From Gemmatimonadota bacterium (GTDB taxonomy: Bacteria; Gemmatimonadota; Gemmatimonadetes; Gemmatimonadales; GWC2-71-9): 64,000 nucleotides of DNA. Location of the stretch: NCBI GenBank assembly GCA_009692185.1, contig SHZT01000001.1, positions 205,247 through 269,246 of the forward strand, in the 5' to 3' direction. Below the pieces are notes generated by a model. That model did no database searches. It worked only from the letters and a program-made list of their open reading frames with translations, and was not told the origin of the DNA. Below are positions 10,315 to 57,381 of the stretch, piece after piece. The position numbers and the translations under genes are program-made. Every line of letters begins with the position of its first letter. The stretch's first letter is position 1.

Positions 10315-11092
10315 CCTTCGCCGGACCCCCTGATCGGCAAACAGACGCGGAAAATGGACCCCCGGTCCGGCTGGGATTCGACCATGATGCGTCCATGGTG
10401 CTCCGCCACGATCCCGTAGCAGATGGACAGGCCGAGCCCCGTGCCGCGCCCCGGCGGCTTCGTCGTATAAAACGGCTCGAAGATCTTGGGCATGTCTTCC
10501 CGCGCGATGCCGTGGCCAGTGTCGGCAATGGACACGCGGACCTCGTCCTTCCGTTCGGGATTGAGCTCGGTGGTGACGGTGAGCGAGCCCGCGCCGTCCA
10601 TCGAGTCGATGGCGTTGATCATGAGGTCCAGGAATACCTGAAGCAACTGCTTGGCGTTGGCGAAGATCTCGGGCAGGCCCTCCGCCAGCTCGCGTTCCAG
10701 CTTGATCTGCTTGATTCGGGAAGCGACGCTTCGAGGAGCCCCAGGTGTTCGCCCGCGTGGGACAGCGGTATGCGGACCTGCCGGCGGTCGCCCACACGCT
10801 CCTGTGACTCCCCTTCTTTGACCTGCCGGGAGACCCGGTCGGCATCCTCGGAGCCGGGCTCGTCTCCACCGGCGGCCACGAATGCGCGGAAGGCCGATCC
10901 GTCGGGCGTGCGTACCCAGATTCGGCAATCCCGGGCCCCCACGCCGCGCTCCACGGCTGCGATGATGCCCTGGAATACCTCGTCGGTGCCAATCCCCGCC
11001 TCGAGGTAGCCGGTAACCTCGCGCAGCACGCGGAGACCCGGGTACTTTTCCAGGTCCACGGCTTCCGGTGCGGTTCGCACGGCCTCGTTCAC
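10311..11092 (-). pseudogene. Decayed GAF-histidine kinase; DHp/H-box missing and reading frame broken
   Basis: A GAF-like N-terminus (ORF 10619..11092) reads up to LGLLEASLPE. An intact HATPase_c (N-box FLDLMINAIDSM, DTGHGI, GTGLGLSICYGI) then continues in another frame to 10311. No H-box is present in any frame between them. Confidence 0.55.
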
Positions 11093-11142
11093 ACCGAGAA
11101 CCTATCGCTCGCGGACGCTGGGCGACACGACGAGCCGCGCCG

Positions 11143-11607
11143 TCACGCCAGCGCCGCGATCTGGCGCAGCAACTCGGCGTTGTCCCGCTTGTGACCCAGC
11201 TCGGCTTCGACGTGGCTCCAGCGCAGAACGCCTTTGCCATCCACCAGGAAATACGCCCGCTTCGAGTGGAACTTCTCCTCGATGAGCACGCCGTATGTCC
11301 GGCTGACATCGCGGCGGAAGTCGGAGAGCAGGTCCACCGTGATGCGTTCCTGCGCCTGGAAGGCCTTGAGGGATGGCACCATGTCCACCGAGATGCCGAG
11401 CACCTTGACCCCGGTGTCGGCGAAGGTCCCGAGCTCCTTCGAGAAATCGCAGAACTCGGCCGTGCAGGTCCGGGTGAACGCCAGCGGGAAGAACGCAAGG
11501 AGGACGGGCTTCCCCTGGAGACCGGAGAGCGTGACGTCGCCGCCCGCGGTCGACGGCAGGGTGAAATCGGGCGCCGGGGCGTGGGCGGCCGGGACGGTTT
11601 GGGGCAT
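11143..11607 (-). CDS. Peroxiredoxin (AhpC/TSA, Bcp/AhpE-like)
   Basis: PAPDFTLPS...GKPVLLAFFPLAFTRTCTAEFC with the peroxidatic Cys context. GGAGA lies 6 nt upstream of ATG 11607. Confidence 0.85.
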   Translation of the reverse strand: MPQTVPAAHAPAPDFTLPSTAGGDVTLSGLQGKPVLLAFFPLAFTRTCTAEFCDFSKELGTFADTGVKVLGISVDMVPSLKAFQAQERITVDLLSDFRRDVSRTYGVLIEEKFHSKRAYFLVDGKGVLRWSHVEAELGHKRDNAELLRQIAALA

Positions 11608-11723: not shown

Positions 11724-12332
11724 ATGGCGTACGAACTTCCCAAGCTGCCCTACGGCTTCGACGCGCTGGAGCCGCATATCGATACCCAGACCATGCAGAT
11801 CCACCACGGCAAGCACCACCAGGCCTACGTCACCAACCTCAACGCCGCCCTCGACAAGCACCCGGAGTTGCACAAGAAGGGGCTGGCCGAGTTGCTGGCG
11901 GACATCGCGACGGTCCCCGAGGACATTCGCGGCCCGGTGCGCAACAACGGCGGCGGGCATTTCAACCACTCGATGTTCTGGGAAACCATGGGCCCCAAGG
12001 GCGGCGGCGAGCCGAAGGGGAAACTGGCTGCCGCGATCCAGGCGGCGTTCGGAGAATTCGCCACGTTCAAGGAACAGTTCGCGGCCGCCGGCGTGGGACG
12101 GTTCGGCAGCGGCTGGGCCTGGCTGATCGCCAATCACGGCAAGGTCTTCATTGAGAGCACGCCCAACCAGGACAACCCGATCATGGACGGCAAGGCCGCC
12201 GTGCTCGGGCTCGACGTGTGGGAGCATGCCTACTACCTCAAGTACCAGAACCGCCGGGCGGACTACATCGCGGCCTGGTGGAACGTGGTCAACTGGGCGG
12301 AAGTCGGGAAACGTTTTGAAGGAGCCAAGTGA
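11724..12332 (+). CDS. sodA: Fe/Mn superoxide dismutase
   Basis: [36 protein letters not shown] and [15 protein letters not shown] motifs; GAGGAG RBS upstream of the ATG. Confidence 0.92.
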
Positions 12333-12333
12333 C

Positions 12334-12750
12334 ATGAACACGCGAATCGGAGTTCTGGCCCTGCTCGGCGGCGTCCTGGTGGCGGCCGCGTGGCAGGCAA
12401 GGGCGACGGCGGAGATCGTGTCCCCCGCGAACCGCGCCACGGTATCCAGCCCCGTCAAGCTGGTGCTCAAGGCGACCGGCGTGGAGATCACGCCAGCCAC
12501 CGAGGAGCGCGCCGGCACGGGGCACCATCACCTCTTCGTGGACCACGACGTCACGGTGGTCAACGACACAATCCCCCGGGGCGTGAGCGGCATCCTGCAC
12601 CTGGGCCGGGGACAGACGGAGTTCGTGTTCGACTCGACGACGACCGTCCTCAAGCCCGGTTCTCACCGGATCATCGACGTGGTGGCCGACTGGCATCACT
12701 CGCCGCTCAAGCCGTGGGCCGCAGACACGGTGACATTCACGGTGAAGTAG
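12334..12750 (+). CDS. Secreted DUF4399-like protein
   Basis: Signal peptide, then the GTGHHHLFVD motif. Starts 1 nt after the sodA stop. Confidence 0.65.
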   Translation: MNTRIGVLALLGGVLVAAAWQARATAEIVSPANRATVSSPVKLVLKATGVEITPATEERAGTGHHHLFVDHDVTVVNDTIPRGVSGILHLGRGQTEFVFDSTTTVLKPGSHRIIDVVADWHHSPLKPWAADTVTFTVK

Positions 12751-12783
12751 GAACAGGGAAACGAGCGAAGGGGTGAACGAGGC
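12751..12783. repeat. Degenerate copy of the GAACGAG motif family
   Basis: GAACAGGGAAACGAGCGAAGGGGTGAACGAGG, between the DUF4399 stop and the antiporter start. Confidence 0.4.
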
Positions 12784-14020
12784 AGGCCCCGGAGTCACCC
12801 GGACCGTCGCCCTCTACATCGCCAGCGCCGCCGCATCCGCGACGGCGTTTTGGTTGATTGCCCGCTACGGAGCCCAGTTGACCCCCGGGTCGCCCGCCCT
12901 GCCAGAGGCGGTCCGCGCACCTGCTTATCCCGCCCCCTCGATCAGCCTGGTGCATGTCCTGGTGGCGCTGGCTGTGATTGTCGCGACCGCGCGAATGACG
13001 GGTTACCTCTTCGCCCTCCTCAAACAACCGCGGGTGATCGGCGAGGTGCTCGCCGGCCTTCTGCTGGGGCCGTCCGCCCTTGGCCGGATTGCACCCGGTC
13101 TCAGCGACGGCTTGTTCGGCGCAGACACCGTTCCGTCCCTCGCCCTGCTGGCCCAGGTGGGCGTCGTCGGCTTCATGTTCCTCGTGGGCCTGGACCTCGA
13201 CACCGCCCACCTCCGCGCGCGGACCCGTTCAGCCATCACCATTTCGCACACGAGCGTTGTGGTCCCCTTCCTCCTGGGGTCGCTGCTCGCGCTCTTCCTG
13301 TATCCGCGGCTCGGCACCGCCGGCGTGCCCTTCGCCGATTTCGCGCTGTTCCTCGGCGTGTCGATGGCCGTCACCGCGTTCCCCGTGCTCGCCCGCATCG
13401 TGACCGAACGTGGACTCCTCCACACCACCGTGGGGACGCTGGCGCTTTCCTCGGCCGCGGTGGGTGACGTCGCAGCGTGGTGCCTGCTGGGGTTCCTCAC
13501 GGCACACGCCGCGGGCGGCGGGGACACGGGCGTTGACCCGCGGGCCTTCTTCGTGTCCGGTGCCTTCATGGCGGGCCTCCTGACGCCGAGGGGAGCCCGG
13601 GTCGCCGAGCCGCTCCGGCGCGTCATCGGAGGCACGTCACTGGTGCTCCTCCCGGTGTTCTTCGCCCTTACCGGCCTCAAGACCCGCGTGCAGCTCGTCG
13701 ACGGCGCCGTCGCCTGGGCGCTCTGCGCCGCCATTCTCGCGACTGCCTGCATCGGGAAGATGGGGGGCGGCATCATCGCGTCCCGGCTCACCGGACTTGG
13801 CTGGCGCGACTCGGCCGCGATCGGGGCTCTCATGAATACCCGGGGCCTGGTGGAGCTGGTCGTGCTCAACCTCGGGCTGGAACTGGGCATCATCTCGCCC
13901 ACCCTGTTCGCGATGCTGGTCATCATGGCCGTGATAACCACGGCGGCGACGATGCCCATGCTGCAGGTGATCGAGCGAACGAGGGAACGTTCTTTCTCCG
14001 TTCCACCATCGCTATCTTGA
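12773..14020 (+). CDS. Cation:proton antiporter (CPA2/Kef-type Na+/H+ exchanger family)
   Basis: Polytopic protein with LKQPRVIGEVLAGLLLGPS, FLVGLDLD, FPVLARI and GALMNTRGLVELVVLN segments. Confidence 0.85.
   Translation: MNEAGPGVTRTVALYIASAAASATAFWLIARYGAQLTPGSPALPEAVRAPAYPAPSISLVHVLVALAVIVATARMTGYLFALLKQPRVIGEVLAGLLLGPSALGRIAPGLSDGLFGADTVPSLALLAQVGVVGFMFLVGLDLDTAHLRARTRSAITISHTSVVVPFLLGSLLALFLYPRLGTAGVPFADFALFLGVSMAVTAFPVLARIVTERGLLHTTVGTLALSSAAVGDVAAWCLLGFLTAHAAGGGDTGVDPRAFFVSGAFMAGLLTPRGARVAEPLRRVIGGTSLVLLPVFFALTGLKTRVQLVDGAVAWALCAAILATACIGKMGGGIIASRLTGLGWRDSAAIGALMNTRGLVELVVLNLGLELGIISPTLFAMLVIMAVITTAATMPMLQVIERTRERSFSVPPSLS
13973..14004. repeat. Copy of the GAACGAG(G/C)G motif with a short inverted partner, at the antiporter 3' end
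   Basis: GAGCGAACGAGGGAACG ... CGTTCC; encodes the protein tail ..ERTRERSFSV. Confidence 0.5.
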
Positions 14021-14028
14021 ACACCATC

Positions 14029-14101
14029 GGGGCGGTAGCTCAGTTGGGAGAGCACGTGGTTTGCAACCACGGGGTCGTGGGTTCGAATCCCATCCGCTCC
14101 A
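14029..14101 (+). tRNA. tRNA-Ala (anticodon UGC)
   Basis: 73-nt cloverleaf read by eye. Acceptor GGGGCGG/CCGCTCC with the G3:U70 Ala identity pair, anticodon loop TTTGCAA, T-arm GTGGGTTCGAATCCCAT. CCA is not encoded. Confidence 0.95.
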
Positions 14102-14103
14102 CT

Positions 14104-14643
14104 ATGACACGCACTGCGATCATCGCCACGCTGCTGGTTGCCGCCGGGTGCTCCGGGGGCCGGGAGCAGGCCGCCCTGCCCCAGGACGCCGGAGCCAGGA
14201 CCGGCAAGTCGCGGTACACGACGCCCACGGTCACTCCCCCAACCCCACCGCCCCCGGCACCGGCCCCCGCGGTCGCACTCGCGCCGACGGCGCTGGGCAG
14301 CCTCATGACCGGGGCCTGGGACATTTCGCCGACCGGCGTCTTCGGCCCCCACCTCACCATTACCGTAGACTCGGCACGGGGCCCCGTGTTTTTCGGGCGA
14401 CTCACCCGAGTCGTGGCGGGCAGCGACGTCCTTCTCGACACCGACCGTTTCGAGCGGTTCGTGGGCATCATCGGCCCGGATTCCGTGGCGCGATTGACCG
14501 TGACGTGGAAGGACAAGCTCTCACCGCCCGCCGAGATCGCGGGGAAGGTGTCGGCCGGCGAGTGGCGTCTTTCCCGGTTCGTCTGGGGCGGCGAGCAACA
14601 GGTAGTGCAGAACCACATCTGGACGGGGCGGAAAGCGAAATAA
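14104..14643 (+). CDS. Hypothetical lipoprotein
   Basis: The ATG lies 3 nt after the tRNA. Signal peptide with lipobox LVAAGC, then a Pro-rich linker. No recognisable domain. Confidence 0.5.
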   Translation: MTRTAIIATLLVAAGCSGGREQAALPQDAGARTGKSRYTTPTVTPPTPPPPAPAPAVALAPTALGSLMTGAWDISPTGVFGPHLTITVDSARGPVFFGRLTRVVAGSDVLLDTDRFERFVGIIGPDSVARLTVTWKDKLSPPAEIAGKVSAGEWRLSRFVWGGEQQVVQNHIWTGRKAK

Positions 14644-15135: not shown

Positions 15136-17724
15136 CTACAAGCTCGGCACCACAGATGCGGCGGCCGGAGCTGCATTGGTCTTCTCAACCCAGGCGAGGA
15201 AGTCGCCCACATCGTACGCGCTGCTCTTGTTCCCGATGAGGTCCAGGTAGCGCATGTCATCGGTGGAAAGGGTCGCGGTCGTACCCAGAAGGGCGCCGAG
15301 CACGTTGGCCAGGGTCAGGCTTGGCTCGGTGGCGTTTATCGATACGGCGGCGTCCGCGGTCTGCACGCCGGACGTGGCGCGCACGTTGGCGGTGAATGCC
15401 CCCGACACCGTCGAGGTACCGCTCACTGAACCATCTGCCGCGAGCGTCACGCCGGCTGGGAACGCCCCACCCACCTGGCTCCACGTGTAGAGGCCCGTGC
15501 CGCCCGTCGCGGCGAGCGTCGTCGTGTACGGCTTCCCCATGACCGGCGCGAGTGCGCTCGGGGCCGTGACCGCGAGCGAGGGCGAGAACACGGCCACCAC
15601 GGCGTACGGCTTCCCCATGGTCAACACGAGCGGGTTGGTCGTGACGTTGGTGTCACCGGTCCAACGCTCGAACACCTGCCCGGCGCCGGGCGTCGCGGTC
15701 AAGGTCATGCCGCTGGCCTTGGTGACGAATGTGCCGTTCGTATGGTCCACCGACGGGGATGAGGCAACCGTGCCGGTCCCCTGGACGGTGGCCTGGACTT
15801 TGACCTTGGTCGCGACGACCGCGGAAATCGAGTCGCCCGCGAAAGTACCGTTGATGTTGTGCGTCCGGAGCCCAGCATCCGACCAGGAAACCCAGACGAA
15901 CTGCGTCTTGCCGTCAGCCGTGGTCTGGGCGGAGTCCATGGAAATGCTGTGAATCGAACCGTCGGTGAAGAGGCCGGTGAACCGACTATAGGCCGTGCCG
16001 TCCACCTTCACCTGGGCGGTAGTGTCGGCCGCGCGGATCACTGTGACGCCACCGAACGCAATCTGGAAACTCATCGCGCCATCGGGGGCGACCTGGGTGA
16101 TATTGGAGATTTCCCAACCGATGAACGTGGAATCGACATGCTTGTTCGCGGCCGGCGTTGTGTTGAACGAGAACCGATTGTTGGGGAGCGAATCCACACC
16201 GTTCGCGCTGTAGCCGGGGAACAGGTCGCCCGCGTCGCCGCGGTTGGCGGCCGTCTCGAGCTGTTTTCGGTTGTCGGCTTGAACGAGCGTGAGGCCGTGG
16301 AATGTACCCGCGTTCATCTGGTTGACGCTCTTGCTCTGCTGGATCTTGGCCGAGTCCACCTGCCAGATAGCAAGCCCGCCATGGCAATTGGTGGGGAAGA
16401 CGAGGCCGCTCTTTGTGCACACGGTGCGGATGAGGGCCGTGTCGGACTGGGAGCCCTGCCGGTTCTCCAGCAGGAAGTACTCCTTCCGCGTGTTCGTGCC
16501 CTGTACCCGCACCAGGAACGTCGTGTCGGACGTCGGGGCCGGCCCGAACGAGTATGTGCCGTTGACGGTGATCGGACGGACCGTCACCCAGCCCAACTCG
16601 TTCAGTGACCATGCTTCCATGCGGGAGGGCGACGCGCCGCTCGACTGGTTGCCGCTCCCCATGAGGCCCCAGTTCCCGATGCCTTCGGATGACTGTTGAG
16701 TGTCGTACAGGTCCGGGAGCCCGAACGCGTGCCCCGACTCGTGTGCCGCCGTGCCGATGGACATGATCTGCGTCGGCTGGTTGCACCCCTGGGAACCGCC
16801 CACGCCCGACTGGAGCGTATAGTCGCGGAAACGGATGTTGCCGAACCCGGCCTTGGCACTGAGGTCGTTGGTGGTAACCGACATGGTCGAGCGGTGGGAC
16901 CACAGGTGCTGGTTGGTCGAGCTCCGGCAGGCGCCATCCAGCTCCGAGTGAATGAATATGGCCATGTCCACGAAGCCGTCATCATCACCCGAGTTGGCAG
17001 TACCGTCCGGGCCGTCATTGTCGAACTGCGAGAAGTTCACAGTCCCGTCGTACTTGGCCACCGCCTGCGTCAGTGCGTTCCGCATGGCGGTCGTCGCCGT
17101 GCCGCTCCAGATACCGTTGCAGTTTGAGTTGCCGTACGGGTTGGACCCGGAGCAGTTCTGCCCGCCCGTGTAGGTCCCTTCCGGACTCGCGAGCGTATCC
17201 CACCCAATAACGACGCCCTGGAGATCCAGCAGACCGTTGGACATCTGGTTGTAGAAGCTGCGAATCGAGTACGGCGTGCCGTAGGGGAATCCCGTGGGCG
17301 CCGTCGCGCTGAACAGGAGCTGGTTGTACTTGGACGTGTCACCCGCGCCGGCCGCGAGACCGGGCGCCCGGGCACTGTCGGCAAAGGAGAACAGAATAGC
17401 GGGAATCTTCTTTACGCCGCTCACCGCGGCGGGCGCGGGCACGGTACTGGGCGCCGCCATCGCCGCGTTGAGTCCCCGCCAGTTGCCCTGCTGCATGAGC
17501 AGGCGCCGCTGGGCCGCGACGCGGCGGGCGAGGACTCGCCACGCGCCGTCGGGGGCGAAGTCGAACACATCACCGTCGGCGTTGCGCAGGACCTCGGGCG
17601 CACGCTGACCCTGCGCGTGCGCGGAGGCAGGGACCGCGAGCGCGGCGACCGCGAGAAGGACGACAAGACGTGCCAGTGTGCGATGCATCACAACTCCCGC
17701 AGGCACTTGAGATAACGTCACCAA
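15136..17724 (-). CDS. M6-family (immune inhibitor A-like) secreted zinc metalloprotease with C-terminal Ig-like and dockerin-like regions
   Basis: HESGHAFGLPDLYD zinc motif and a signal peptide. The likely start is MHRTLARL at 17688. The C-terminal segment reads LDLIGNKSSAYDVGDFLAWV. Confidence 0.85.
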   Translation of the reverse strand: MVTLSQVPAGVVMHRTLARLVVLLAVAALAVPASAHAQGQRAPEVLRNADGDVFDFAPDGAWRVLARRVAAQRRLLMQQGNWRGLNAAMAAPSTVPAPAAVSGVKKIPAILFSFADSARAPGLAAGAGDTSKYNQLLFSATAPTGFPYGTPYSIRSFYNQMSNGLLDLQGVVIGWDTLASPEGTYTGGQNCSGSNPYGNSNCNGIWSGTATTAMRNALTQAVAKYDGTVNFSQFDNDGPDGTANSGDDDGFVDMAIFIHSELDGACRSSTNQHLWSHRSTMSVTTNDLSAKAGFGNIRFRDYTLQSGVGGSQGCNQPTQIMSIGTAAHESGHAFGLPDLYDTQQSSEGIGNWGLMGSGNQSSGASPSRMEAWSLNELGWVTVRPITVNGTYSFGPAPTSDTTFLVRVQGTNTRKEYFLLENRQGSQSDTALIRTVCTKSGLVFPTNCHGGLAIWQVDSAKIQQSKSVNQMNAGTFHGLTLVQADNRKQLETAANRGDAGDLFPGYSANGVDSLPNNRFSFNTTPAANKHVDSTFIGWEISNITQVAPDGAMSFQIAFGGVTVIRAADTTAQVKVDGTAYSRFTGLFTDGSIHSISMDSAQTTADGKTQFVWVSWSDAGLRTHNINGTFAGDSISAVVATKVKVQATVQGTGTVASSPSVDHTNGTFVTKASGMTLTATPGAGQVFERWTGDTNVTTNPLVLTMGKPYAVVAVFSPSLAVTAPSALAPVMGKPYTTTLAATGGTGLYTWSQVGGAFPAGVTLAADGSVSGTSTVSGAFTANVRATSGVQTADAAVSINATEPSLTLANVLGALLGTTATLSTDDMRYLDLIGNKSSAYDVGDFLAWVEKTNAAPAAASVVPSL

Positions 17725-17881
17725 GCTACGTTAGCCGGGGGCACGAAACCAGACCGTGCCGTGGGTCACCCGGAACCTTCAGGGCTCGCAGGGGGTGACA
17801 CCCGGGGATACGCGCCACCCCTACGCGGGGCCTCGGGCTAAGAGGCCGTCCCGTCGTGACATGGCTCACGTCCGGCAACCC

Positions 17882-17910
17882 TTGTGGAGGAGGGAGTCGA
17901 GGGCTAAAAT
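17882..17910 (+). promoter_or_regulatory. Putative sigma70-type promoter upstream of the alpha-oxoamine synthase cluster
   Basis: TTGTGG, 17 nt, TAAAAT, about 40 nt upstream of the TTG start at 17951. Confidence 0.25.
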
Positions 17911-17950
17911 CGTAGAGTCCATTCCCTAAACCGTAATCCCTGAGGCGCCG

Positions 17951-19153
17951 TTGGACACCCAGATCCTGCAACACGTCGCGCTGTTCGACAAATGCAAGAA
18001 TTTCACCAAGGCCAAGGAGATCCAGGCCTCGGGCCTGTACCCCTATTTCAAGCCGATTTCCGAATCGGAAGACACCGTCGTCGTCATTGACGGGCAGAAG
18101 AAAGTCATGATGGGGTCCAACAACTACCTGGGCCTCACCCACCACCCAAAAGTCCTGGAATCGGCCAAGGCGGCCCTCGAGCGGTACGGCTCGGGCTGCA
18201 CCGGCAGCCGGTTCCTGAACGGCACGCTCGACCTGCACGAAATGCTGGAGGCCCGCCTCGCCGAGTTCTTCGGCAAGGAAGCGGCGCTGGTGTTCTCCAC
18301 CGGGTACCAGGCCAACCTGGGGCTCATCTCGTGCCTCGTAGGCCGGGGCGACGTTGTCCTGCTCGACAAGCTGGACCATGCGTCCATCGTGGACGGCGCG
18401 AAAATGTCGTGGGGCGATACCCAGCGGTTCAACCACAACGACCTGGCCCAGCTCGAGCGCCTGCTGCAGCGGAACGCCGACAAGGGCACGATGATCATCG
18501 TGGACGGTGTCTACTCCATGGAGGGAGACATCGCCGACGTGCCGGCCCTGCTCAAGCTGGCCCAGCGCTACAGCGCGGCACTCGCGATTGACGATGCCCA
18601 CGCCACCGGGGTCCTGGGCCCCCGCGGAGACGGCACGGCGGCGCATTTCGGCCTCACCGAGGAAGTAGACCTCGTGGTCGGGACGTTCTCCAAGTCCCTG
18701 GCCTCCATCGGCGGGTTCGTGGCGGGCACCGAAAACGTCATCCACTACCTCAAGCACAACTCCCGGCCGCTCATCTTCACGGCCGCGTTGCCCCCCGCCA
18801 ACACCGCGGGCGTGCTGGCGGCGCTCGAGGTCATGATTGCCGAGCCGCATCGCCGGGACCAGCTCTGGGAAAACACCCGGCGCCTCCAGGACGGCTTCCG
18901 GAGCTTGGGGTTCGACATCGGCCCCACCCAGACGCCCATCGTGCCGGTCCTCATCGGCGACATGACCAAGACGTTCCTCTTCTGGCGGAAGCTGTTCGAC
19001 GCCGGGGTGTTCACCAACCCGGTCGTCCCGCCCGCCGTGTCCGCCACCGAGTGCCGGCTCCGCACCAGCCTCATGGCCACGCACACGGCCGAGCAGATCG
19101 ACTTCGCGCTCGATACGTTCGCACGCCTCGGCAAGGAGCTGGGGGTCATTTGA
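17951..19153 (+). CDS. Alpha-oxoamine synthase (PLP, class II aminotransferase), serine palmitoyltransferase-like
   Basis: [41 protein letters not shown] and the PLP-Lys context GTFSKSL. Overall collinear with bacterial SPT/KBL/BioF as I recall them. Confidence 0.85.
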
Positions 19154-20280
19154 GCCCGCCGGTGGTCGTCCGGCCGATCACTTCGGCCGGCGACCTCGAA
19201 CGATTTATCGCGCTGCCGTACGACTTGTTCCGTGGGGACCCCGTGTGGGTCCCCCAGTTGCGTATGGACGTCCGCACCATGCTGTCCCGCACGAAGAATC
19301 CGTTCTTCCAGCATTCCGAGGCGGAGTACTTCCTGGCCGAGCGGAATGGGGAAGTCGTGGGCCGCATTGCGGCAGTCCACAACCGGGCGCACATCGACTA
19401 CTACAAGGACACCACCGGCTTCTTCGGCTTCTTCGAGTGCGTGGACGACCAGGTGGTGGCGAATGCCCTGTTCGCCGCCGCGGCGGCGTGGCTCACGCAA
19501 CGGAACCTCACCGTCATGCGCGGGCCCACGTCCTTTTCGACCAACGACGAGTGCGGTCTCCTAGTCGACGGCTTCGACACGCCACCCACATTGCTCAACC
19601 CGCACAACCCGGCGTACTACGTGCCGCTGGTCGAGCGTGCCGGGTTCCTGAAGGCGAAGGACATGTACCAGTACTGCATCGCGGTGACCGACCAGGATAC
19701 CGCCGTGCCGGAACGGCTGCTCCGCGGCGCCCAGATCGTGGCCGAGCGCAACAACCTCACCGCGCGCAAGCTCGACATGAAGCACTTCAAGGAGGAAGTG
19801 AACCGCATCAAGCAGATCTACAACTCGGCCTGGGACAAGAACTGGGGGTTCGTCCCGCTGACCGAGGCCGAGATCGATCACCTGGCCAAGCAGCTCAAGC
19901 CCATCGTGGTGCCCGACGGGGTGGTGTTCATCGAGAAGGAAGGCCAGCTCGTCGGCTTCGCCGCCGCCCTGCCCGACTTCAACGTCGCCCTGAAGAAGAA
20001 TCCCTCGGGGAAACTCTTCCCCGGCATCCTCAAGGTCCTCTGGCACGGGCGCAGGATCAAACGCGGGCGTATCCTGCTCCTCGGCCTCCTCCCGGAGTAC
20101 CGGAAGACCGGCGCGGAAGTCCTGCTGTACAAGTGGCTCTGGGAGAAGGGCTACAAGCTTGGCTTCCGCTGGGCGGAAGCCGGCTGGATCCTCGAAGACA
20201 ACACCCCGATGAACAACGGGCTCACCCACATGGGCTTTCAGCGCCACAAGACGCTCCGCCTCTACGACCGCGCACTGTGA
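19150..20280 (+). CDS. Large GNAT-fold N-acyltransferase-like protein (~376 aa)
   Basis: TTG start in a TTGA overlap with the upstream stop. C-terminal GNAT-like core ([18 protein letters not shown]...[11 protein letters not shown]). Confidence 0.65.
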
Positions 20281-21281
20281 AAGTCTTCGTCACGGGTGGA
20301 ACCGGCTTCCTCGGTTCACACCTGGTCGAAGCCCTCCTCGCCCGGGGCGATGACGTCGTCTGCCTGGTGCGGGACCCCGGCAAGGTAGACCGGGTGTTCG
20401 ACAAGCAGCGCCCCCGTTTGGTTGCCGGAAATCTCAACGACGTGGCCGCCCTCGAAACCGGCGCCGGCGGCGCGGACCTCGTGTTCCACGTCGCCGGGCT
20501 CATCGCCGCCGTTTCCCGCGCCGATTTCTTCAACGCCAACGCCGAGGGCACGAGGCGGGTGGCGCGCGCGGCGGCGAAGGTGGCGCCGAATCTCCAGCGA
20601 TTCGTCTATGTCAGCAGCCAGGCCGCATCGGGACCCTCGCGCCGCGGCGAGGCGCTCACCGAGTCCGCCAAGCCCAACCCGCTCACGGAATACGGCCGCA
20701 GCAAGCTCGCCGGCGAAGAGGCCGTGCGGGAATGCACGTTCCCCTGGACGATCGTGCGCCCGCCGGTGGTCTACGGGCCGCGCGACACGGAAGTCCTGCG
20801 GATGTTCCGGACCGTGCGCATGGGCGTCGCCCCCATTTTCGGCGACGGCAAGCAGGAACTCTCGGTCATCTACGTCGAAGACCTCGTCACGGCCCTGCTG
20901 AAGGCTGCGGCCAGCCCGAAGCCGGGCGCCACCTACTTCGCCGCGCACCGGCAGGTGCTCACCAGCCGGGATTTCGTGTCCGCGATCTACCACGCCGTGC
21001 GAGGTACCGAACCGCAGAAGTCGGCCCGCGCCTCGGGTCCGTTCCTCCTGCCGATTCCCAGCATGGTGGCCAGGGGAGCGCTCTGGATGACCGAGAAGGC
21101 CGCGCAGCTCACCGGCAAGCCGACGCTCCTCACGCCTGACAAGGCGAACGAGTTCCTGGCCGAGGCGTGGGTGTGCTCGTCGGCCGCGCTGGAACGCGAC
21201 ACGGGGTGGGTGGCGCAGTTTGACCTGGGGACGGGACTCTCCCGGACCGCCGCGTGGTACCGCAGTCACGGGTGGCTATAG
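20277..21281 (+). CDS. NAD-dependent epimerase/dehydratase-family reductase (extended SDR)
   Basis: GTGA overlap with the upstream gene. Rossmann motif VFVTGGTGFLGSHLV and the catalytic YGRSK (YxxxK). Confidence 0.8.
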   Translation: MKVFVTGGTGFLGSHLVEALLARGDDVVCLVRDPGKVDRVFDKQRPRLVAGNLNDVAALETGAGGADLVFHVAGLIAAVSRADFFNANAEGTRRVARAAAKVAPNLQRFVYVSSQAASGPSRRGEALTESAKPNPLTEYGRSKLAGEEAVRECTFPWTIVRPPVVYGPRDTEVLRMFRTVRMGVAPIFGDGKQELSVIYVEDLVTALLKAAASPKPGATYFAAHRQVLTSRDFVSAIYHAVRGTEPQKSARASGPFLLPIPSMVARGALWMTEKAAQLTGKPTLLTPDKANEFLAEAWVCSSAALERDTGWVAQFDLGTGLSRTAAWYRSHGWL

Positions 21282-21291
21282 CAGCTGCGAC

Positions 21292-22368
21292 TCAGTGCTT
21301 GTGCTCGGCAGGTTTCTTCTTGTCAGCCGGCGGGGCCATGATCACCGCCATCGTTCCGGTCACTTCCCGCATGTAATGCTTGCGATCCATCACGTACAGG
21401 AACTCCTTCACGTCCGTCGCGAGCCACTGTTCACCGCTCGACGGCAGGAATATTCCCGCCACCACGCCCATCCCGCCTGACGGCATCGTGTCGGGCTTCG
21501 GGTTCTGATAGTCCACGGTCACCCGGTACAGGTGTGACGTGTCCACCTTCATGCCCAGGTTCTTGAGGAAACTGCTCGTGGTCAGGCTGTTCACGTTGCC
21601 ATTGTCATCCATGTAGGGCGTGGCGTCGAAAATGAGCTTGCCGGTCGTGGCATCCTGGAAGCGGAGCCGCGTGGCGTACTCGTGCAGGTGCCCGCCCATA
21701 ATCAGGATCTTGCCGTTCACCGCCGGTTTCCCCTCCCACGAGCGGCTCGACGCCCCGGGTGGCAGGTCCCATGACTTGTCACCGAAGGGAAATGCCGCAT
21801 CCACCTGGAACGGCTGGATGGGAAAGAGCGGCCAGGGGCGTCCGGTCTTCTGGTACGTCATGGTGAACCGCACGGTCGCGCCGTGGTAGGCGGTGCTCGT
21901 GGGGTTGTGCAACATGGCGGCAACGACCAGCCGGTCTCCCTTGTTCACCGGGAGGCCAAACAGAAACCAGGGCATGGCCTGGTCCCCGGTTTCGCCTCCC
22001 GCCGCGGCCACGCGCCGCGAAATGGGGAGAAAGAGCTCGCGGTGATCCGGATCGATGAAGTTGAGGTGATGTACGACCTGGTTGGGAACTGTTTTCCCAT
22101 CCTGGTCCACCACGTCGTAGCTGAACCCCGTGAGGTAGCCGGTCATGGGGAAGCTCACGGTTTCGACCGGCGGCAAGATGCCGCCATGTGCGCCGTGATG
22201 CTCGCCCATGACGGGCAGCTCGATGGGCCCGATCAGGATGGTAAACCGGCTTTGCGCGTCGTCGTTGACGACGCGGACGGTTTGCGCGGCGGCCGCAGAC
22301 GGCGCCAGCACGAGAAGAAGCGTGAAGAGATTCTTGCGCGTCATTGTGACAGAAGAGAAGTGCTTCAT
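21292..22368 (-). CDS. Secreted hypothetical protein with a copper-monooxygenase (PHM/DBH)-like His/Met pattern
   Basis: Signal peptide, then spaced VVHHLNF, H (MLHNP or AYHGATV), GGHLHEY (HxH) and a later GGMGV. This mimics the HH..H / HxH..M arrangement of type II Cu monooxygenases. Fold assignment is inference only. Confidence 0.7.
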   Translation of the reverse strand: MKHFSSVTMTRKNLFTLLLVLAPSAAAAQTVRVVNDDAQSRFTILIGPIELPVMGEHHGAHGGILPPVETVSFPMTGYLTGFSYDVVDQDGKTVPNQVVHHLNFIDPDHRELFLPISRRVAAAGGETGDQAMPWFLFGLPVNKGDRLVVAAMLHNPTSTAYHGATVRFTMTYQKTGRPWPLFPIQPFQVDAAFPFGDKSWDLPPGASSRSWEGKPAVNGKILIMGGHLHEYATRLRFQDATTGKLIFDATPYMDDNGNVNSLTTSSFLKNLGMKVDTSHLYRVTVDYQNPKPDTMPSGGMGVVAGIFLPSSGEQWLATDVKEFLYVMDRKHYMREVTGTMAVIMAPPADKKKPAEHKH

Positions 22369-22992: not shown

Positions 22993-23753
22993 AGCCCGCC
23001 GTTCCCGACTGCCAGTCGATGGGATCCCATTGCCGGGAGCTGCCGGTCCTGCTCCGCGTGGCCGAACTGAGCGAAGACGACGGCCCGTTCCGGGACATGA
23101 TCGGGACCTGGCTCATGGGACACGTCGAGAACCTGGACTTCGGCACTCCACGGGTGTTGGGAGATCGCGTGGTGGTGGACACGACGATCCACGCCGAATG
23201 CCGGTACTTCCAGGCCGATGGTCCCTCGTTCCGGTGTCTGGCCCATGGCTTCCGGGGGGCGTTGCCCGACGAGGCCCGGCCGACGGAGCAACCGTTTATC
23301 GCCAACGGCACGGTCACACTCATGCAGGACGACCGGGTTCAGACTGTCGCCCTTTCGGCCCGCGCGAAACCCAGCCGCGCCCTACCCACACTCGACGTGA
23401 ACCCCTGTCTCGGGGCGCCGTGCCGTACGGCGGACAACGTGCAGGGCGCGGCATGCTGCCGCGACCTCACGCTCGAGGTGATCATCCCCGCCTGGAATAC
23501 CGAGACGGAGACCCTGCTGGAAACACGGCAGACGCCCTACGTGACCAAGGTCGAGCGGGTCAGCGAAGACATCGTCGAGTGCGAGGTGATCTCTGCTTGC
23601 GGGTACCTCGGGGCCGACGGCGTGGCGTGCGGGTTGCACGACCTCGAGCGCGCGGACGGTTCACCGGCCAAGCCGGCCATCTGCTCCGACTGGCCTGACC
23701 TCGACGAAGACTGCGACTGGCACCCGGGCTGCCGCCTGGTGGAGAAGGCATGA
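22989..23753 (+). CDS. Cysteine-cluster protein, C-terminal half YkgJ/UPF0153-like (putative Zn/Fe-chelating)
   Basis: GTGA overlap upstream and ATGA overlap downstream. Cys patterns CLGAPCRTADNVQGAACC and CGLHD...KPAICSDWP; 17 Cys in total. Confidence 0.6.
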   Translation: MKPAVPDCQSMGSHCRELPVLLRVAELSEDDGPFRDMIGTWLMGHVENLDFGTPRVLGDRVVVDTTIHAECRYFQADGPSFRCLAHGFRGALPDEARPTEQPFIANGTVTLMQDDRVQTVALSARAKPSRALPTLDVNPCLGAPCRTADNVQGAACCRDLTLEVIIPAWNTETETLLETRQTPYVTKVERVSEDIVECEVISACGYLGADGVACGLHDLERADGSPAKPAICSDWPDLDEDCDWHPGCRLVEKA

Positions 23754-51867: not shown

Positions 51868-52363
51868 CTCGCACCTCTACCGCCCCGGCCGTCTTGAGCG
51901 CCTGCTCGACCGACGGACGCCTCTCGACCGGGCACGGCACGAAGATCCCGATGTGATCGTCACTGCACCGCGGGTCGTACGGCGTCTGTTTCGCCTCGCG
52001 CCACGTGTGAAAGAGCAGGCCCATGATCGTCGCCAATCCGCCGAAGAGGATCGTCATCTCGAACGCGATGACGATGTAGGGCGGAACGGAGCCCAGGGGC
52101 TTGCCGCCCACGACCACCGGGTAGTCGTATGACATCCAGAAGGTGATCGCGAAGCCGCTGAAGCAGCCGAACAAGCCGCCGAGCAAGGTCCAGAGCCGCA
52201 CCGGGCTCGTCGGGTGCCCGATGGCCGCGGCGATCTCGTGGTTCGGCACGGGCGTGTAGACCGTGAATCCCTTGTAGCCCGCTTCCTTGAGCTGGCGAAT
52301 AGCGTGGCTGGCCGAGTCCACGTGCTTGTACACGGCGAGGATCCCGCTCGGCGTGACGCTCAT
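51860..52363 (-). CDS. actD: Alternative Complex III subunit ActD (DUF3341)
   Basis: ATGA overlap with actC. GILAVYKHVDSASHAIRQLKEAGY N-terminus and two TM segments. Confidence 0.8.
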   Translation of the reverse strand: MSVTPSGILAVYKHVDSASHAIRQLKEAGYKGFTVYTPVPNHEIAAAIGHPTSPVRLWTLLGGLFGCFSGFAITFWMSYDYPVVVGGKPLGSVPPYIVIAFEMTILFGGLATIMGLLFHTWREAKQTPYDPRCSDDHIGIFVPCPVERRPSVEQALKTAGAVEVRVE

Positions 52364-53691
52364 TTGTGCGCCGTCGTCTTCCGCTGCATCGGGATGATCT
52401 CCTTCACCTCGGTCAGCGACACGGTGGGGAAGTTGCGCGCGAACAGCAGGAACCAGGTGAAGAACCAGGCAAAGCTCCCCGCCGTGATCGTCCAGTCCAC
52501 CCAGGTCGGCGTGTAGTGGTCCATCGCGAACGGCTCGTACTCGTGCGAGAGCGAGATCACGATGATCACGTAGCGCTCGAACCACATGCCCAGGTTGATG
52601 AACAGCGAGAGCACGAACATCATGGGGATGCTGCGGCGGATCTTGGGGAACCAGAGCAGCTGCGACAGGAACGCATTGCAGATGATCATAGTCCAGGTGG
52701 CCCACCAGTAATCCCCGAACGCGCGGAAGTAGAACGACTCCCGCTCGTATGGGCTCCCGCTGTACCAGGCGATGAAGTACTCGACCAGGTACGCATACCC
52801 CACGATCGACCCGGTGAGCAGCAGCAGCTTGCCCAGGTTGTCGAAATGTTCCTCGTGCACATAGCGCTCGAGCCCGAGCGTCGTGCGCAGCGGCACCAGG
52901 AGGGTGACCACCATCGCGAGCCCCGAGTAGATCGCGCCGGCCACGAAGTAGGGTGCGAAGATGGTCGTGTGCCACCCGGGCACGATGGACACGGCGAAAT
53001 CCCACGACACGACGCTGTGCACCGAGAGCACCAGCGGCGTCGCCAGGGCGGCCAGGAACAAGTAGGCCTTGGTGTAGTGCCGCCACTGCGAGTCGGTACC
53101 TCGCCAATTGAGCGCGAACAACTTGTAGATCTTCCCCCGGAAGCCCGTCACCTTGTCGCGCACGGCGGCAACGTCCGGCACGAGGCCCACGATCAGGAAC
53201 ACAGTGCTCACCGTGAAGTACGTGCTGATGGCGAACACGTCCCACAGGAGCGGCGACTTGAAGTTGGGCCAGAGCTGGCGCTGGTTGGGATAGGGGAACA
53301 ACCAGTAGGCGTACCACAGCCGCCCCAGGTGGATCACCGGGAAGAGGCCCGCCGTCATGACGGCGAACACGGTCATGGCCTCGGCCGTGCGGTACACCGC
53401 CGTTCGCCACGCGGAACGGAACAGGTAGAGAATGGCCGAGATGAGTGTCCCGCAGTGGGCGATACCGACCCAGAACACAAAGTCGGTGATGTACACCGCC
53501 CACATGACCGGGGGCTGGTAACCGGCCATGCCCAGCCCGTAGCGAATCTGGTAGAGGAATGCCACGCCGCCGGCCGCGAGCACGAACAGGACGAAGCCCA
53601 GCAGGATGTAATAGCCCCGCCCCGGCCGGCCCATGGAGGCGACGACGTCGCGGGTGACTTCCGAATAGGTCGGCTGGGTCGCCGTCGTCAC
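52360..53691 (-). CDS. actC: Alternative Complex III quinol-binding subunit ActC (NrfD/PsrC family)
   Basis: 443 aa, 10 TM, NrfD-like. Confidence 0.9.
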   Translation of the reverse strand: MTTATQPTYSEVTRDVVASMGRPGRGYYILLGFVLFVLAAGGVAFLYQIRYGLGMAGYQPPVMWAVYITDFVFWVGIAHCGTLISAILYLFRSAWRTAVYRTAEAMTVFAVMTAGLFPVIHLGRLWYAYWLFPYPNQRQLWPNFKSPLLWDVFAISTYFTVSTVFLIVGLVPDVAAVRDKVTGFRGKIYKLFALNWRGTDSQWRHYTKAYLFLAALATPLVLSVHSVVSWDFAVSIVPGWHTTIFAPYFVAGAIYSGLAMVVTLLVPLRTTLGLERYVHEEHFDNLGKLLLLTGSIVGYAYLVEYFIAWYSGSPYERESFYFRAFGDYWWATWTMIICNAFLSQLLWFPKIRRSIPMMFVLSLFINLGMWFERYVIIVISLSHEYEPFAMDHYTPTWVDWTITAGSFAWFFTWFLLFARNFPTVSLTEVKEIIPMQRKTTAHK

Positions 53692-53695
53692 CAGA

Positions 53696-56600
53696 CTACG
53701 CCTCGACCACGTTGCGGACTTTCCGCAGGTAGGTGACGCCGGGCCTGGTGTTCAGTCCATCGAGCACGTGGTAACCGGTCTCGAGCGCCGCCAGCCGGGA
53801 AACGCGCGAGTTCCGGTCGTTCAGGTCGCCGAACACGATGGCGTCGGCCGGGCAGGTCTGCTGGCAGGCCGTCTGGATCTCCCCGTCCTTGAGCGGCGTC
53901 CCCCGCATGCGAGCGTCGTGCTGTTTTCCGCGGATCCGCTGGACGCAGAAGGTGCATTTCTCCATGACGCCCTTGGAGCGCACGGTCACGTCCGGGTTGA
54001 GCAGGAGGTGCAGGGGCTCCGGCCAGGCATACGTCGTGTCGGCCGGGTTCGACGAGTCGAACCAGTTGAAGTAGCGGACCTTGTAGGGACAGTTGTTGGC
54101 GCAATAGCGCGTGCCCACACAGCGGTTGTACACCTGGCCGTTCAGGCCATCTGGCGTGTGATACGACGCGAAGACGGGGCACACGGGCTCGCACGGCGCG
54201 TTGCCGCACTGCTGGCACATCATGGGCAGAAACCGCGCCTCGAGCGGCCGGTCGTCGTCTCCGCCTTCGAAGTAGCGCTCGATCCGGATCCAGGACATTT
54301 CGCGGCCCCGCCGAACCTGGTCCACGCCTACCTGCGGAATGTTGTTCTCCGAGTAACAGGCGGTAACGCAGGCACTGCACCCGGTGCAGCGGGAGAGATC
54401 GATCGCCAGGCCCCAGCGGGGGTGGTCTCCCGCGTAAGGCGCATGGGCGTTGTAGTCGTCGTAGTGCTCCTGCTGAACTTCTTCGAGGAGTTTCTCGATG
54501 TTCTCCGGGAGGGGCGAGGCCTCATGCGACTCGGGCTCGCCGGTCTCCCCCGCCGCCAACTGCCCGACGGTCACCGCCTGGGCGATGCCGCGGCCCATCT
54601 GCCGCGCGCTCCCCTCGGTGGACGCCAGCCGCTCGTGCACGCCCGTCGCAGCCAGCGACACCGGCACGTAGTGATCCACTCCGCCAAAGGCCGTGGGCGT
54701 CGCCCCCAGCAGGCGATACGCGTTGGCGCCCACATTCTCGGCGAACCGGCCGAAGGCGGTGTGCCCCTGCCCCAGCGGCACAGCCACCACGTCGCGACGG
54801 ACGCCGTGATACACGTACGCCGGCACCGTGATCGAGCCCGACGCGGATTTCACTTCGACGTGATCGCCCTGCGATATGCCGAGCCGCCCCGCCGTGTCCG
54901 GATGGATCTCCACCCAGGTGCTCCAGGTGATCTTGCTGACCGGGTCCGGCAGTTCCTGGAGCCACGGGCGGTTGGCGCCCCGGCCGTCATGAAAGACGGG
55001 CGACGGATACACGATGGCGGTCAGCCCGTCCTCCGCTGAGGCGATCGGGGTCTCGGTGATGCGCGTGGCGGAGGCCGCGAGACCAACCGGGCGCGTCCGC
55101 GCCCGCCGGTACACGCCCCCGGCCCGCAATGACTCGTTCCAGAAGTCCTCGAACGCGCCCGCCACGCCCACCGTGCGCTGGACACCGTGCCACGCGTCCT
55201 TGAGGTAGGTCTCCCACGACGCGGCGGGAAGACGCCGGGCGGCGGTGCCGCCCAGCTTCTGCGCCACGCCGAGGAGCACGTCGCCGGTCTGCTTCGTGTC
55301 GAACACGTTGGACATGACCGGCTGCTGCAGGAGATGCATGCCCGCCCGCGGCTCGGAATCGTTCCACTGCTCCAGGGGATCGGAGTCCGGCAGGATGAGG
55401 TCGGCGCTCATTGCCGTTTCATCCCAGAACCGCGCGAAGCTCACCCTGAACTTCGCCGAGCCGAGTGCATCGCCGAACGCGGTGCCCGGCGTGCCATGCA
55501 CCGGGTTGGCGCCGTGGACGAACAGCACGTCCACCGTGCCATCGGTGATCGCCTTGGTGAGACCCGACAGGGCGGCGTAGCCCAGGCCCGGAAACGTGGC
55601 CTCGGCATCGAACTTGACCGTGCGGTTCACGTTCCCGGCGACGTAGTTAAGGATATGCACCGCCGCCGCGGTGAATGCCGCGTTCGCGTGCTGGGCGCCC
55701 ATGCCCCCGGCGATCGCCAAGCTCGGCCCCGCCACGAATTCCTTCGCCAGGCGTTCGATGATTTCCTCGGATACTCCCGAACGCTCGGCGACGTCCTCCG
55801 GCTCGTACCGGCCGAGCAGGCCACGCAGGGCGGACGCGGGCGGGCCGTTTTTCACGAGCCCGTCTTCCACGATCAGGTGTGCAATGGCGAGGGCCACCTG
55901 GCCCTCGGTACCAGAGTTGGGCGCGACCCATTCGTCCGCGCTCATGCCCGTCATGCCCATGCGAGGCTCGATATGCACGTACCGGGCACGCGTACCGGTG
56001 CGGGCCGCCCGCCCGTCGGCGAAGCCGCGTGTCTGCTCGACCGGCGACCCAAACGTCTCGAGGAAATCGGCGCCGAACGAGAGGACGTATTTCGCCGCGG
56101 CAAAATCGTAGACCGGCACGGCCTCGATGCCGAATACCTCGCGCGTCGCGCGCCTCAGCGCCTCGTGACCGAACGGCTCGAACGACACCCGGTTCGTGGA
56201 GCCGACGCCTCCGAGGAACTGCGTCACCAGGCGGTCGAACGATCCCGTCTCGTGCCCGGTGACGAACCAGACACGGTTCCCCGCCACGCCGGTCAGCTTC
56301 GCCGCCACTGCGGCAATCGCGGCATCCCACGGGATCGGGGCGAACGTGCCATTGGCCTGCTTGGCCATGGGCGTCCGGACGCGGTCGGGGTTGTAGAGAC
56401 CCTGGAGTCCCGCCTGGCCCCGCGCGCAGAGCTTGCCGCGGTTGATGGGGTTCTCCGGGTTCCCTTCGATCTTGACCGCGCGGCCTTCCCGCACCCGCAC
56501 GTGCAGGCCGCACCCCGCGGAACACTCACGGCAGGTGGTGGCGTAGTACGTGGCGATACCCGGCGTCTGGTCCTCGATCGGGACCAGGAACGGGATGAGC

Positions 56601-56797: not shown

Positions 56798-57381
56798 GCC
56801 GTACAGTCCGTCGTCTGCTTGTTCTTCTTATGACAATCCAGGCACCAGCCCATTTTCAGCGACGAGTACTGGTAGACCCGTGCCATTTCCTGCACCGGCC
56901 CGTGACACGTCTGGCAGGTGATGCCCGCCCCTTTCACGTGCCGCATGTGAGGGAAGTGCACGAACGGAGGCAGCCGGTGAACCTTGACCCATTCCACCGG
57001 CTGATCGTTGCTGGCTGCCTCCCTGAGTCTTTCGACCTCGGGATTGTCCGTCCCGATGACCGTATGACACCCCATGCACGTGGGGCGGATGGACGGGATC
57101 CCGGCGTGCATGCTGGTCTCGGCCGCGAAATGACAGTACCGGCAGTCCATTTTGTACTGGCCGGCATGGACATCGTGGCGGTAGAAGACGGGCTGGACGG
57201 GACCGGGGAGACCTGCCGTATCGACTGTCGCGGGTGCGACGAAGTTATCTGCGGTGCGGGTCGGTACGGCTTCCTGGGCGTTCGAATTGAGGCATGCGCT
57301 CAGCACAAGCAGGGAGCCGGTGCCGAGCGTGGTAATCGCCAGAGCCAGCGGACCTCGAAGGTTCGGCATGACCCCCTGCAA
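56785..57381 (-). CDS. actA: Alternative Complex III penta-haem cytochrome c subunit ActA
   Basis: Five CxxCH motifs (CRYCH, CMGCH, CQTCH, CLDCH, CTACH) and an N-terminal anchor. Confidence 0.85.
   Translation of the reverse strand: MQGVMPNLRGPLALAITTLGTGSLLVLSACLNSNAQEAVPTRTADNFVAPATVDTAGLPGPVQPVFYRHDVHAGQYKMDCRYCHFAAETSMHAGIPSIRPTCMGCHTVIGTDNPEVERLREAASNDQPVEWVKVHRLPPFVHFPHMRHVKGAGITCQTCHGPVQEMARVYQYSSLKMGWCLDCHKKNKQTTDCTACHY

Follow-up and report, generated by a model that had tools for sequence, protein, structure and literature searches.

A three-gene operon of a Gemmatimonadota bacterium that probably encodes an acyl carrier protein-independent ceramide-backbone pathway

The ceramide pathway of Caulobacter crescentus was reportedly described by Olea-Ozuna 2021 and Stankeviciute 2022. 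Its three enzymes are a serine palmitoyltransferase (SPT; Spt, CC_1162/CCNA_01220), a bacterial ceramide synthase (bCerS, CC_1154/CCNA_01212), and a ceramide reductase (CerR, CC_1164/CCNA_01222) (PMC11087976, PMC11324152). We analyzed a 64-kb stretch of DNA from a Gemmatimonadota bacterium (contig SHZT01000001.1; hereafter, the window; G+C ~67%), in which three plus-strand open reading frames (ORFs; 17951-21281) form an operon whose products belong to the same three enzyme families as the Caulobacter proteins and share their predicted chemistry of condensation, N-acylation, and keto-reduction. A preliminary description of this DNA had assigned the genes to the Spt, bCerS, and CerR classes, and the homology of each protein, as set out below, agrees with that assignment. 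We conclude from sequence comparisons that the trio probably constitutes a complete bacterial ceramide-backbone pathway, independent of acyl carrier protein (ACP) and encoded in one coupled operon, with the following features.

17951..19153, + strand: spt, a serine palmitoyltransferase-like alpha-oxoamine synthase (AOS) of 400 aa; TTG start with GAGG 5 nt upstream
19150..20280, + strand: bcerS, a tandem-GNAT N-acyltransferase of the YghO / CC_1154 family, 376 aa; TTG start
20277..21281, + strand: cerR, an extended short-chain dehydrogenase/reductase (SDR; NAD-dependent epimerase family) of the CerR/epi type, 334 aa; GTG start
19150..19153, + strand: 4-nt TTGA overlap, the bcerS start TTG lying on the spt stop TGA (junction cat-TTGA-gc)
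20277..20280, + strand: 4-nt GTGA overlap, the cerR start GTG lying on the bcerS stop TGA (junction ct-GTGA-aa)

The ORFs were recovered at these positions, and 4-nt overlaps could be read at both junctions, just as the preliminary description had it; in the public annotation of identical contigs, the three products likewise measure 400, 376, and 334 aa. The TTGA overlap points to translational coupling of spt and bcerS, and all three genes are predicted to be coupled in this way. In this respect the locus differs from Caulobacter-type loci, where cerS occupies a separate operon from spt and cerR, and from Bacteroidota such as Bacteroides, whose pathway genes are reported to be unclustered. 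It also differs in acyl supply, as Caulobacter and other Alpha-, Beta-, and Gammaproteobacteria need AcpR and AasR, whereas a tblastn search with three AcpR and three AasR references (E<=1e-3) returned no homologue of either across the 64 kb; the earlier remark that no ACP or acyl-ACP synthetase gene adjoins the trio thus stands. Both proteins are reported as restricted to Alpha-, Beta-, and Gammaproteobacteria, and their absence here is therefore expected. The E. coli B/BL21 cluster, which consists of aasR-epi-acpR-spt and a divergently transcribed yghO and depends on AcpR/AasR, encodes proteins with 35% (YghO), 27% (epi), and 42% (Spt; 41.6%, E 3e-101) identity to those of the window, and the Spt of E. 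coli BL21(DE3) has been assayed (PMC9386255). The window's gene order, its overlaps, and its lack of AcpR/AasR recur on a plasmid of Streptomyces sp. NBC_01001 and on plasmid 1 of Rubrobacter radiotolerans, the two named references with the highest identities (Rubrobacter: Spt 52%, bCerS 42%, CerR 33%; Streptomyces: 46%, 39%, and 37%, respectively).

The AOS matched PF00155 in Pfam (199.7 bits) and contains the motifs GTFSKS (with the pyridoxal phosphate (PLP)-binding lysine), HASIVDG, and DDAHATG, all of which align with the SPT of Sphingobacterium multivorum. Two entries for that enzyme (3a2b and 8guh) were its best matches in the PDB at 435.7 bits, and its alignment with 8guh showed 50% identity over 387 columns, with the PLP-lysine, His, and Asp motifs kept. 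S. multivorum SPT is a soluble, acyl-CoA-using SPT. Lower scores were obtained with Thermus-type AOS and sphingomonad SPTs (295-305 bits), KBL (264-272 bits; E. coli KBL 272), the cysteate acyltransferases CapB and SulA (249 and 235 bits; 28eh and 7u7h), BioF (~210-219 bits), ALAS (196 bits), and CqsA (149 bits). Among NCBIfam models, the top match was the SPT model NF047600 (SPT-CFB) at 545 bits, against BioF at 408 and KBL at 390. In a neighbor-joining tree, E. coli Kbl and BioF branched outside a clade of GNAT-linked AOS/Spt proteins that contained the window AOS and the Spt proteins from the Roseomonas, Klebsiella, Streptomyces, and Rubrobacter clusters. By these comparisons, the AOS is closer to characterized SPTs than to any of the other groups (KBL, BioF, ALAS, CqsA, and the cysteate acyltransferases), in line with its earlier description as SPT-like rather than BioF- or KBL-like.

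The second protein gave a weak Pfam match to PF00583 (27 bits, residues 219-356), matched no NCBIfam model, and had no solved relative among PDB sequences (best 2ozg, E 0.32). A profile search placed it in a very large family of 10,427 cluster representatives (E<=1e-3), nearly all of ~375 aa. We drew its link to characterized enzymes from annotated plasmids. It is 35% identical to E. coli YghO over residues 5-376 (372 of 376 aa; E 8e-71), and YghO (ECD_02850) is given with CC_1154 and Swit_3908 as one of the acyltransferase genes that dihydroceramide synthesis requires (Padilla-Gomez et al., PMC9386255). It is also 40% identical by blastp, over its full length, to a homologue on Roseomonas gilardii pRo-1 (E 3e-77). 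The neighborhood of that gene reads LptF/G-LptF/G-desaturase-GNAT-nucleotidyltransferase, an order that matches CC_1156 (LptF2)-CC_1155 (LptG2)-CC_1154 (cerS)-CC_1153 (nucleotidyltransferase) in Caulobacter (PMC11324152), and we therefore regard the Roseomonas gene as the positional orthologue of CC_1154. The pRo-1 plasmid further carries aasR, cerR, a flippase gene, acpR, spt, an acylglycerol-kinase-family (ceramide-kinase-like) gene, a CDP-alcohol transferase, and a metallophosphoesterase; by gene content this equals the whole Caulobacter sphingolipid locus. These two full-length homologies bear out the earlier view of gene 2 as a GNAT-fold, bCerS-like protein.

An alignment of the window GNAT with YghO and with Klebsiella, Roseomonas, Streptomyces, Rubrobacter, Cloacimonas, and fusion homologues was collinear throughout, with 46 invariant columns. 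The AlphaFold model of the protein is a tandem GNAT (predicted local distance difference test, pLDDT, 95.4; predicted template modeling score, pTM, 0.92), and its top Foldseek matches were tandem GNATs such as mycothiol synthase MshD (template modeling score ~0.6). The C-terminal GNAT domain contains the acyl-CoA motif R318-x-x-G321-A322, in which R318, G321, and A322 are invariant among close relatives, and the PF00583 match falls in this domain as well; analogy with other tandem GNATs makes the C-terminal domain the likely acyl-CoA site. Proteobacterial (AcpR-type) bCerS/YghO proteins differ from the window protein by a 4-residue insertion at alignment columns ~335-345 (window residues 316-322), with loss of the R-x-x-G-x-A motif that other lineages keep; this insertion may reflect a different acyl-donor site.

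Two side observations concern Roseomonas. Its whole Caulobacter-like sphingolipid locus is plasmid-borne, and bCerS orthologues on pRo-1 (locus L087 5971-7128, WP_247560850.1) and on other Roseomonas plasmids are annotated in RefSeq as "dATP pyrophosphohydrolase," a label that looks like a propagated misannotation.

The third protein matched PF01370 (133.6 bits), with the Rossmann motif VTGGTGFLG at residues 6-14 and a YxxxK motif, YGRSK, and its structural neighbors in the PDB include NDUFA9. Its full-length identity to the SDRs of the reference clusters was 37% for Streptomyces, 33% for Rubrobacter, 31% for Roseomonas, 29% for Klebsiella, and 27% for E. coli. Of 72,556 records in a plasmid collection, 59 matched the SDR at E<=1e-15, and most of these also carry the GNAT. 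On the E. coli chromosome NZ_OL790696.1 (4.8 Mb), the best and only match among those listed at this threshold (757257-758141) lies ~2 kb from yghO (760263), and in an 11.9-Mb Nonomuraea record, the best match adjoins the GNAT gene. These data indicate that the SDR is orthologous to ceramide-cluster SDRs rather than to sugar epimerases, and the epimerase/NDUFA9-like, CerR-type identity first proposed for gene 3 is retained. The protein starts directly at the Rossmann motif and has no signal peptide, as is also the case for its Roseomonas, Klebsiella, and E. coli homologues; bCerS and CerR are soluble in both Caulobacter and the window, with no predicted transmembrane segments or N-terminal signal peptides. 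A periplasmic location has been reported for Caulobacter CerR.

We then asked how the trio is arranged elsewhere. A genome scan with a 14-sequence GNAT alignment matched at least 596 species genomes, and the counts given here come from the best 80 species-representative loci, all of which are metagenome-assembled genomes (MAGs). Gemmatimonadota contribute 32 of the 80, and the others come from Acidobacteriota, Ignavibacteria, Bacteroidota, Eisenbacteria, Binatia, Zixibacteria, Chlorobiota, Anaerolineae, Latescibacterota, Bdellovibrionia, and others; no cultured Gemmatimonadota appeared among the best 120 matches in two large protein searches. In 61 of the 80 loci, the GNAT gene is immediately preceded by a codirectional AOS gene; 14 loci have no AOS gene, and five of these are truncated at that point. 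An SDR gene was present somewhere in 62 loci and stood next to, or divergent from, the AOS/GNAT genes in 59. The pattern of Gemmatimonadota and Eisenbacteria places it immediately downstream of the GNAT gene (33 loci), that of Ignavibacteria and Bacteroidota places it upstream in divergent orientation (21 loci), and in five loci it lies upstream and is codirectional. The tblastn matches abut as they do in the window in most Gemmatimonadota loci, the spt/bcerS junction is abutting (gap -1) in several related Gemmatimonadota loci, and the bcerS/cerR junction abuts in 24 of the 33 loci whose SDR gene follows the GNAT gene. AcpR was found in none of the 80 loci and an AMP-ligase in only one; AcpR and AasR were seen in proteobacterial references only.

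Natural AOS::GNAT (Spt::bCerS) fusions were found in two proteins, P0131 (780 aa) and P0245, the former in an SDR-fusion-PAP2_3 operon on an 819-kb metagenomic contig (L095 6001-8343). This Rosetta-stone link fits a direct hand-over of 3-ketosphinganine to the acyltransferase. In P0262, an apparent fusion of GNAT and SDR, the C-terminal ~55 residues of the GNAT are missing; it is possibly a frameshift artifact, and we did not rely on it.

Judged by this conservation, the arrangement of the trio is not due to chance. The contrary proposal, that a KBL or BioF, an ordinary acetyltransferase, and a sugar-nucleotide epimerase are unrelated housekeeping genes that happen to be adjacent, could draw on the generic names that Pfam alone yields and on a BioF model score close to its cut-off. 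It is effectively refuted by the 4-nt overlaps at both junctions, the linkage kept across many phyla, the gene fusions, the lack of tdh or bio genes nearby, and the finding that the best whole-genome match of the SDR is cerR and not a galE or rfb gene.

Related observations were made in other bacteria. An IncFIB conjugative plasmid of Klebsiella michiganensis (NZ_CP106839.1; L090, 115876-122422) carries aasR-cerR-acpR-spt as a complete cluster, along with dgkA and a divergently oriented yghO-like bCerS gene, and Rahnella and Pseudomonas plasmids too carry ceramide-pathway genes; from gene content, the pathway appears to be mobile among Gammaproteobacteria. In Candidatus Cloacimonas, a bCerS homologue (L003 10001-12074) is flanked by plsY and a PAP2_3 gene, and neither an Spt nor an SDR gene lies within 10 kb of it. 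Cloacimonadota were described by Ding et al. as having no bCerS close to Spt; the gene does occur, but in a different lipid-gene neighborhood.

Many loci with the window's gene order contain a fourth gene. In 28 of these 33 loci, a PAP2_3 gene follows the SDR gene and often overlaps it, and in the closest species-level relative of the window (L005), it sits in the interval that corresponds to a 10-bp spacer here.

10728-11582 of locus L005 and ~12078-12986 of locus L019: PAP2_3 gene, present likewise in 26 other loci
21282..21291 of the window, no strand: 10-bp spacer from the cerR stop to the stop of the convergent gene

The encoded proteins matched PF14378 (72.5 bits for L005 and 63.4 bits for L019), with a weak match to PAP2_C. 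We take PF14378 to be the Aur1/Ipt1 inositol-phosphorylceramide-synthase family, and on that basis PAP2_3 is a candidate ceramide phospho-head-group transferase. No PAP2_3 homologue was detected among the window ORFs with a hidden Markov model built from 29 homologues and run across the 64 kb (best E 2.3), and locus L006 is also without the gene. Close relatives whose AOS is 75-83% identical carry this Aur1-like fourth gene, and its loss in the window's lineage would be the simpler reading. An Aur1-like PAP2_3 needs a C1 hydroxyl, and its recurrence favors serine as the Spt substrate, with a product that would carry a free C1 hydroxyl. Other lineages differ at this position, with a condensation-domain (PapA-like) acyltransferase on the Streptomyces plasmid (L086 8042-9289) and an LTA-synthase/sulfatase-family protein on the Rubrobacter plasmid (L091 8221-10290), whereas most Gemmatimonadota have PAP2_3 and the window has none; the differing genes in Actinomycetota suggest lineage-specific tailoring of ceramide.

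The Streptomyces condensation-domain protein could also be taken as a sign that the operon makes a diffusible secondary metabolite, such as an acylated amino-ketone or amino-alcohol signal or antibiotic, instead of a membrane lipid, and AOS enzymes do make the CAI-1 signal (CqsA scored 149 bits with the window AOS). We consider this very improbable. No polyketide synthase, nonribosomal peptide synthetase, regulator, or exporter gene accompanies the trio in the window; the module occurs in at least 596 species genomes and is vertically conserved, with the same neighbors in up to 13 Gemmatimonadales loci; and in other lineages it lies beside the membrane-lipid genes PlsY, PAP2_3, LptF/G paralogues, and dgkA.

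A number of observations count against assigning the trio to ceramide synthesis. The AOS lies under the trusted cut-off of every NCBIfam SPT model (NF047600, 545 versus 640; NF047599, 415 versus 500; NF047603, 342 versus 670), these models having been built for the Cytophaga-Flavobacterium-Bacteroides group (CFB), Beta-, and Alphaproteobacteria, with the Gemmatimonadota lineage outside their training sets, and it is only 18 bits under the cut-off of the BioF model TIGR00858 (408 versus 426). The amino-acid specificity of the AOS cannot be read from its sequence. The GNAT and the SDR are connected to Caulobacter by way of orthologues that are published or positional (E. coli YghO and Roseomonas), and not by the CCNA_01212 and CCNA_01222 sequences themselves. 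SDR identity to the proteobacterial references is low (27-31%), and the nearest other family, HpnA-type epimerases (91-95 bits), falls within the range of the ceramide-cluster SDRs (88-159 bits, the E. coli chromosome lowest). No head-group enzyme, flippase, or transporter gene accompanies the trio within the window, and we found no biochemical or lipid data for any Gemmatimonadota.

The first of these points bear on whether the same enzyme types could use an amino acid in place of serine to make a sphingoid-like lipid, for example a 1-deoxyceramide from alanine, a capnine/sulfobacin-type sulfonolipid from cysteate, or a glycine- or lysine-derived base. The shortfall against the SPT equivalog cut-offs, the difficulty of predicting amino-acid specificity from overall similarity, the proposal by Ding et al. 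that Spt-like enzymes may use other amino acids, and the absence from the window of PAP2_3, from which a C1 hydroxyl is deduced in relatives, would all be compatible with such a product. The capnine/sulfonolipid pathway (CapB/SulA with CapC) follows a like logic of AOS condensation, keto-reduction, and then N-acylation. However, the window AOS is much nearer to SPT (436 bits) than to the cysteate acyltransferases 28eh (249 bits) and 7u7h (235 bits), it is 50% identical to a crystallized SPT with all PLP-site motifs kept, the GNAT belongs to the bCerS/YghO family, no cysteate synthase gene adjoins the trio, and relatives with a 75-83% identical AOS have the Aur1-like gene. We therefore regard a non-serine product as unlikely, and the sulfonolipid/capnine option that the preliminary description had kept alongside ceramide has lost ground.

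If the trio does make a ceramide backbone, the PLP-dependent Spt would condense L-serine with a long-chain acyl thioester to give 3-ketosphinganine. The acyl donor would most likely be acyl-CoA, a choice that follows from the absence of AcpR/AasR and the closeness of the AOS to the Sphingobacterium enzyme. The tandem-GNAT bCerS would then acylate the C2 amine with a second chain taken from acyl-CoA, and the extended SDR CerR would reduce the C3 keto group with NAD(P)H to yield dihydroceramide. Acylation before reduction is the Caulobacter model, which comes from localization work (PMC11087976); the reverse order would be possible too. Acylation of 3-ketosphinganine ahead of its reduction also agrees with the fusion of Spt to bCerS and with the tight coupling of spt and bcerS. 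In the relatives, PAP2_3 would add a phospho-head group at the C1 hydroxyl, whereas here dihydroceramide may stay free as the end product or be completed to another lipid by an enzyme from a different part of the genome. Our data establish the gene structure, the homology of each protein, the conserved linkage, and the fusions; from these and the Caulobacter model we infer the substrates, the order of the steps, and the actual production of a membrane sphingolipid. We also offer, tentatively and with some doubt, the wider proposal that Gemmatimonadota make ceramide through an AcpR-independent operon and that the present lineage, having lost its head-group transferase, either accumulates free dihydroceramide or uses a head-group enzyme not linked so far to bacterial sphingolipids.

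Gemmatimonadota are among the most abundant soil phyla. If our reading is true, they would join the sphingolipid producers, with the module in at least 32 species-level genomes among the best 80 loci. This would bear on the assignment of soil and sediment ceramides, which are usually credited to fungi, Bacteroidota, and Sphingomonads, and on the envelope biology of a phylum that is hard to culture. The Aur1-like gene that recurs in fourth position supplies a candidate for the ceramide phospho-head-group transferase of many phyla outside the Proteobacteria. The known pathway itself is unchanged by these findings. The spread of the trio across many phyla is already published (PMC11334938), and its reach is reported as nine phyla (Stankeviciute 2022) and as 38 phyla in Black Sea MAGs (Ding 2024). 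A literature search for Gemmatimonadota together with SPT, ceramide, bCerS, or sphingolipid returned only unrelated soil and gut surveys, a search that does not extend to the phylum lists of Stankeviciute 2022 and Ding 2024; Gemmatimonadota are unmentioned in the Ding et al. supplements that the search covered. The pathway is thus a known one and not a new kind of system, and what the operon predicts is sphingolipids in a phylum for which we found no report. The earlier idea that a little-studied phylum would have a sphingolipid-like lipid not yet reported holds in part: the host is a Gemmatimonadota MAG and no report was found, but the spread of the trio across phyla had already been described.

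The operon is bounded as follows.

15136-17724, - strand: M6 peptidase gene, divergent from the operon; upstream boundary
17725..17950, + strand: intergenic region between the M6 peptidase gene and spt, the presumed operon promoter region; spt ribosome-binding site GAGG at 17943-17946
21292-22344, - strand: convergent gene for a secreted 350-aa protein with no Pfam match; downstream boundary
23019-23753, + strand: gene for a 244-aa protein with no Pfam match

With a divergent gene on one side and a convergent gene on the other, the trio is a self-contained operon. Its promoter presumably lies in 17725-17950; upstream of spt, we found no sigma-70 consensus site and no Rfam family or riboswitch match, and no convincing terminator was found. 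The operon neighbors are shared by up to 13 Gemmatimonadales loci (M6 peptidase 11, 244-aa gene 13), and the genes for the 350-aa and 244-aa proteins adjoin the operon in eight and 13 such loci, respectively. This conserved neighborhood may come from common descent and not from a functional link.

The remainder of the window is of housekeeping character, with genes for TonB/ExbBD, a two-component system, superoxide dismutase, a Na/H exchanger, a Ser/Thr kinase, aspartokinase-homoserine dehydrogenase, sirohaem synthase, and a molybdopterin/NrfD complex. The sole other lipid gene is a dgkA-like gene ~8 kb from the trio. A 195-aa ORF in the public annotation (14056-14643, +) overlaps a tRNA-Ala(TGC) gene at 14029-14102 (+), and its first residues are translated tRNA-Ala; the real start of this ORF is probably the lipoprotein-like signal MTRTAIIATLLVAAGC, ~16 codons in. 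Finally, at 52360-56827 (-), a fused molybdopterin/4Fe-4S protein (1043 aa) adjoins an NrfD-family membrane protein, and the pair resembles an alternative complex III or a polysulfide-reductase-like module.

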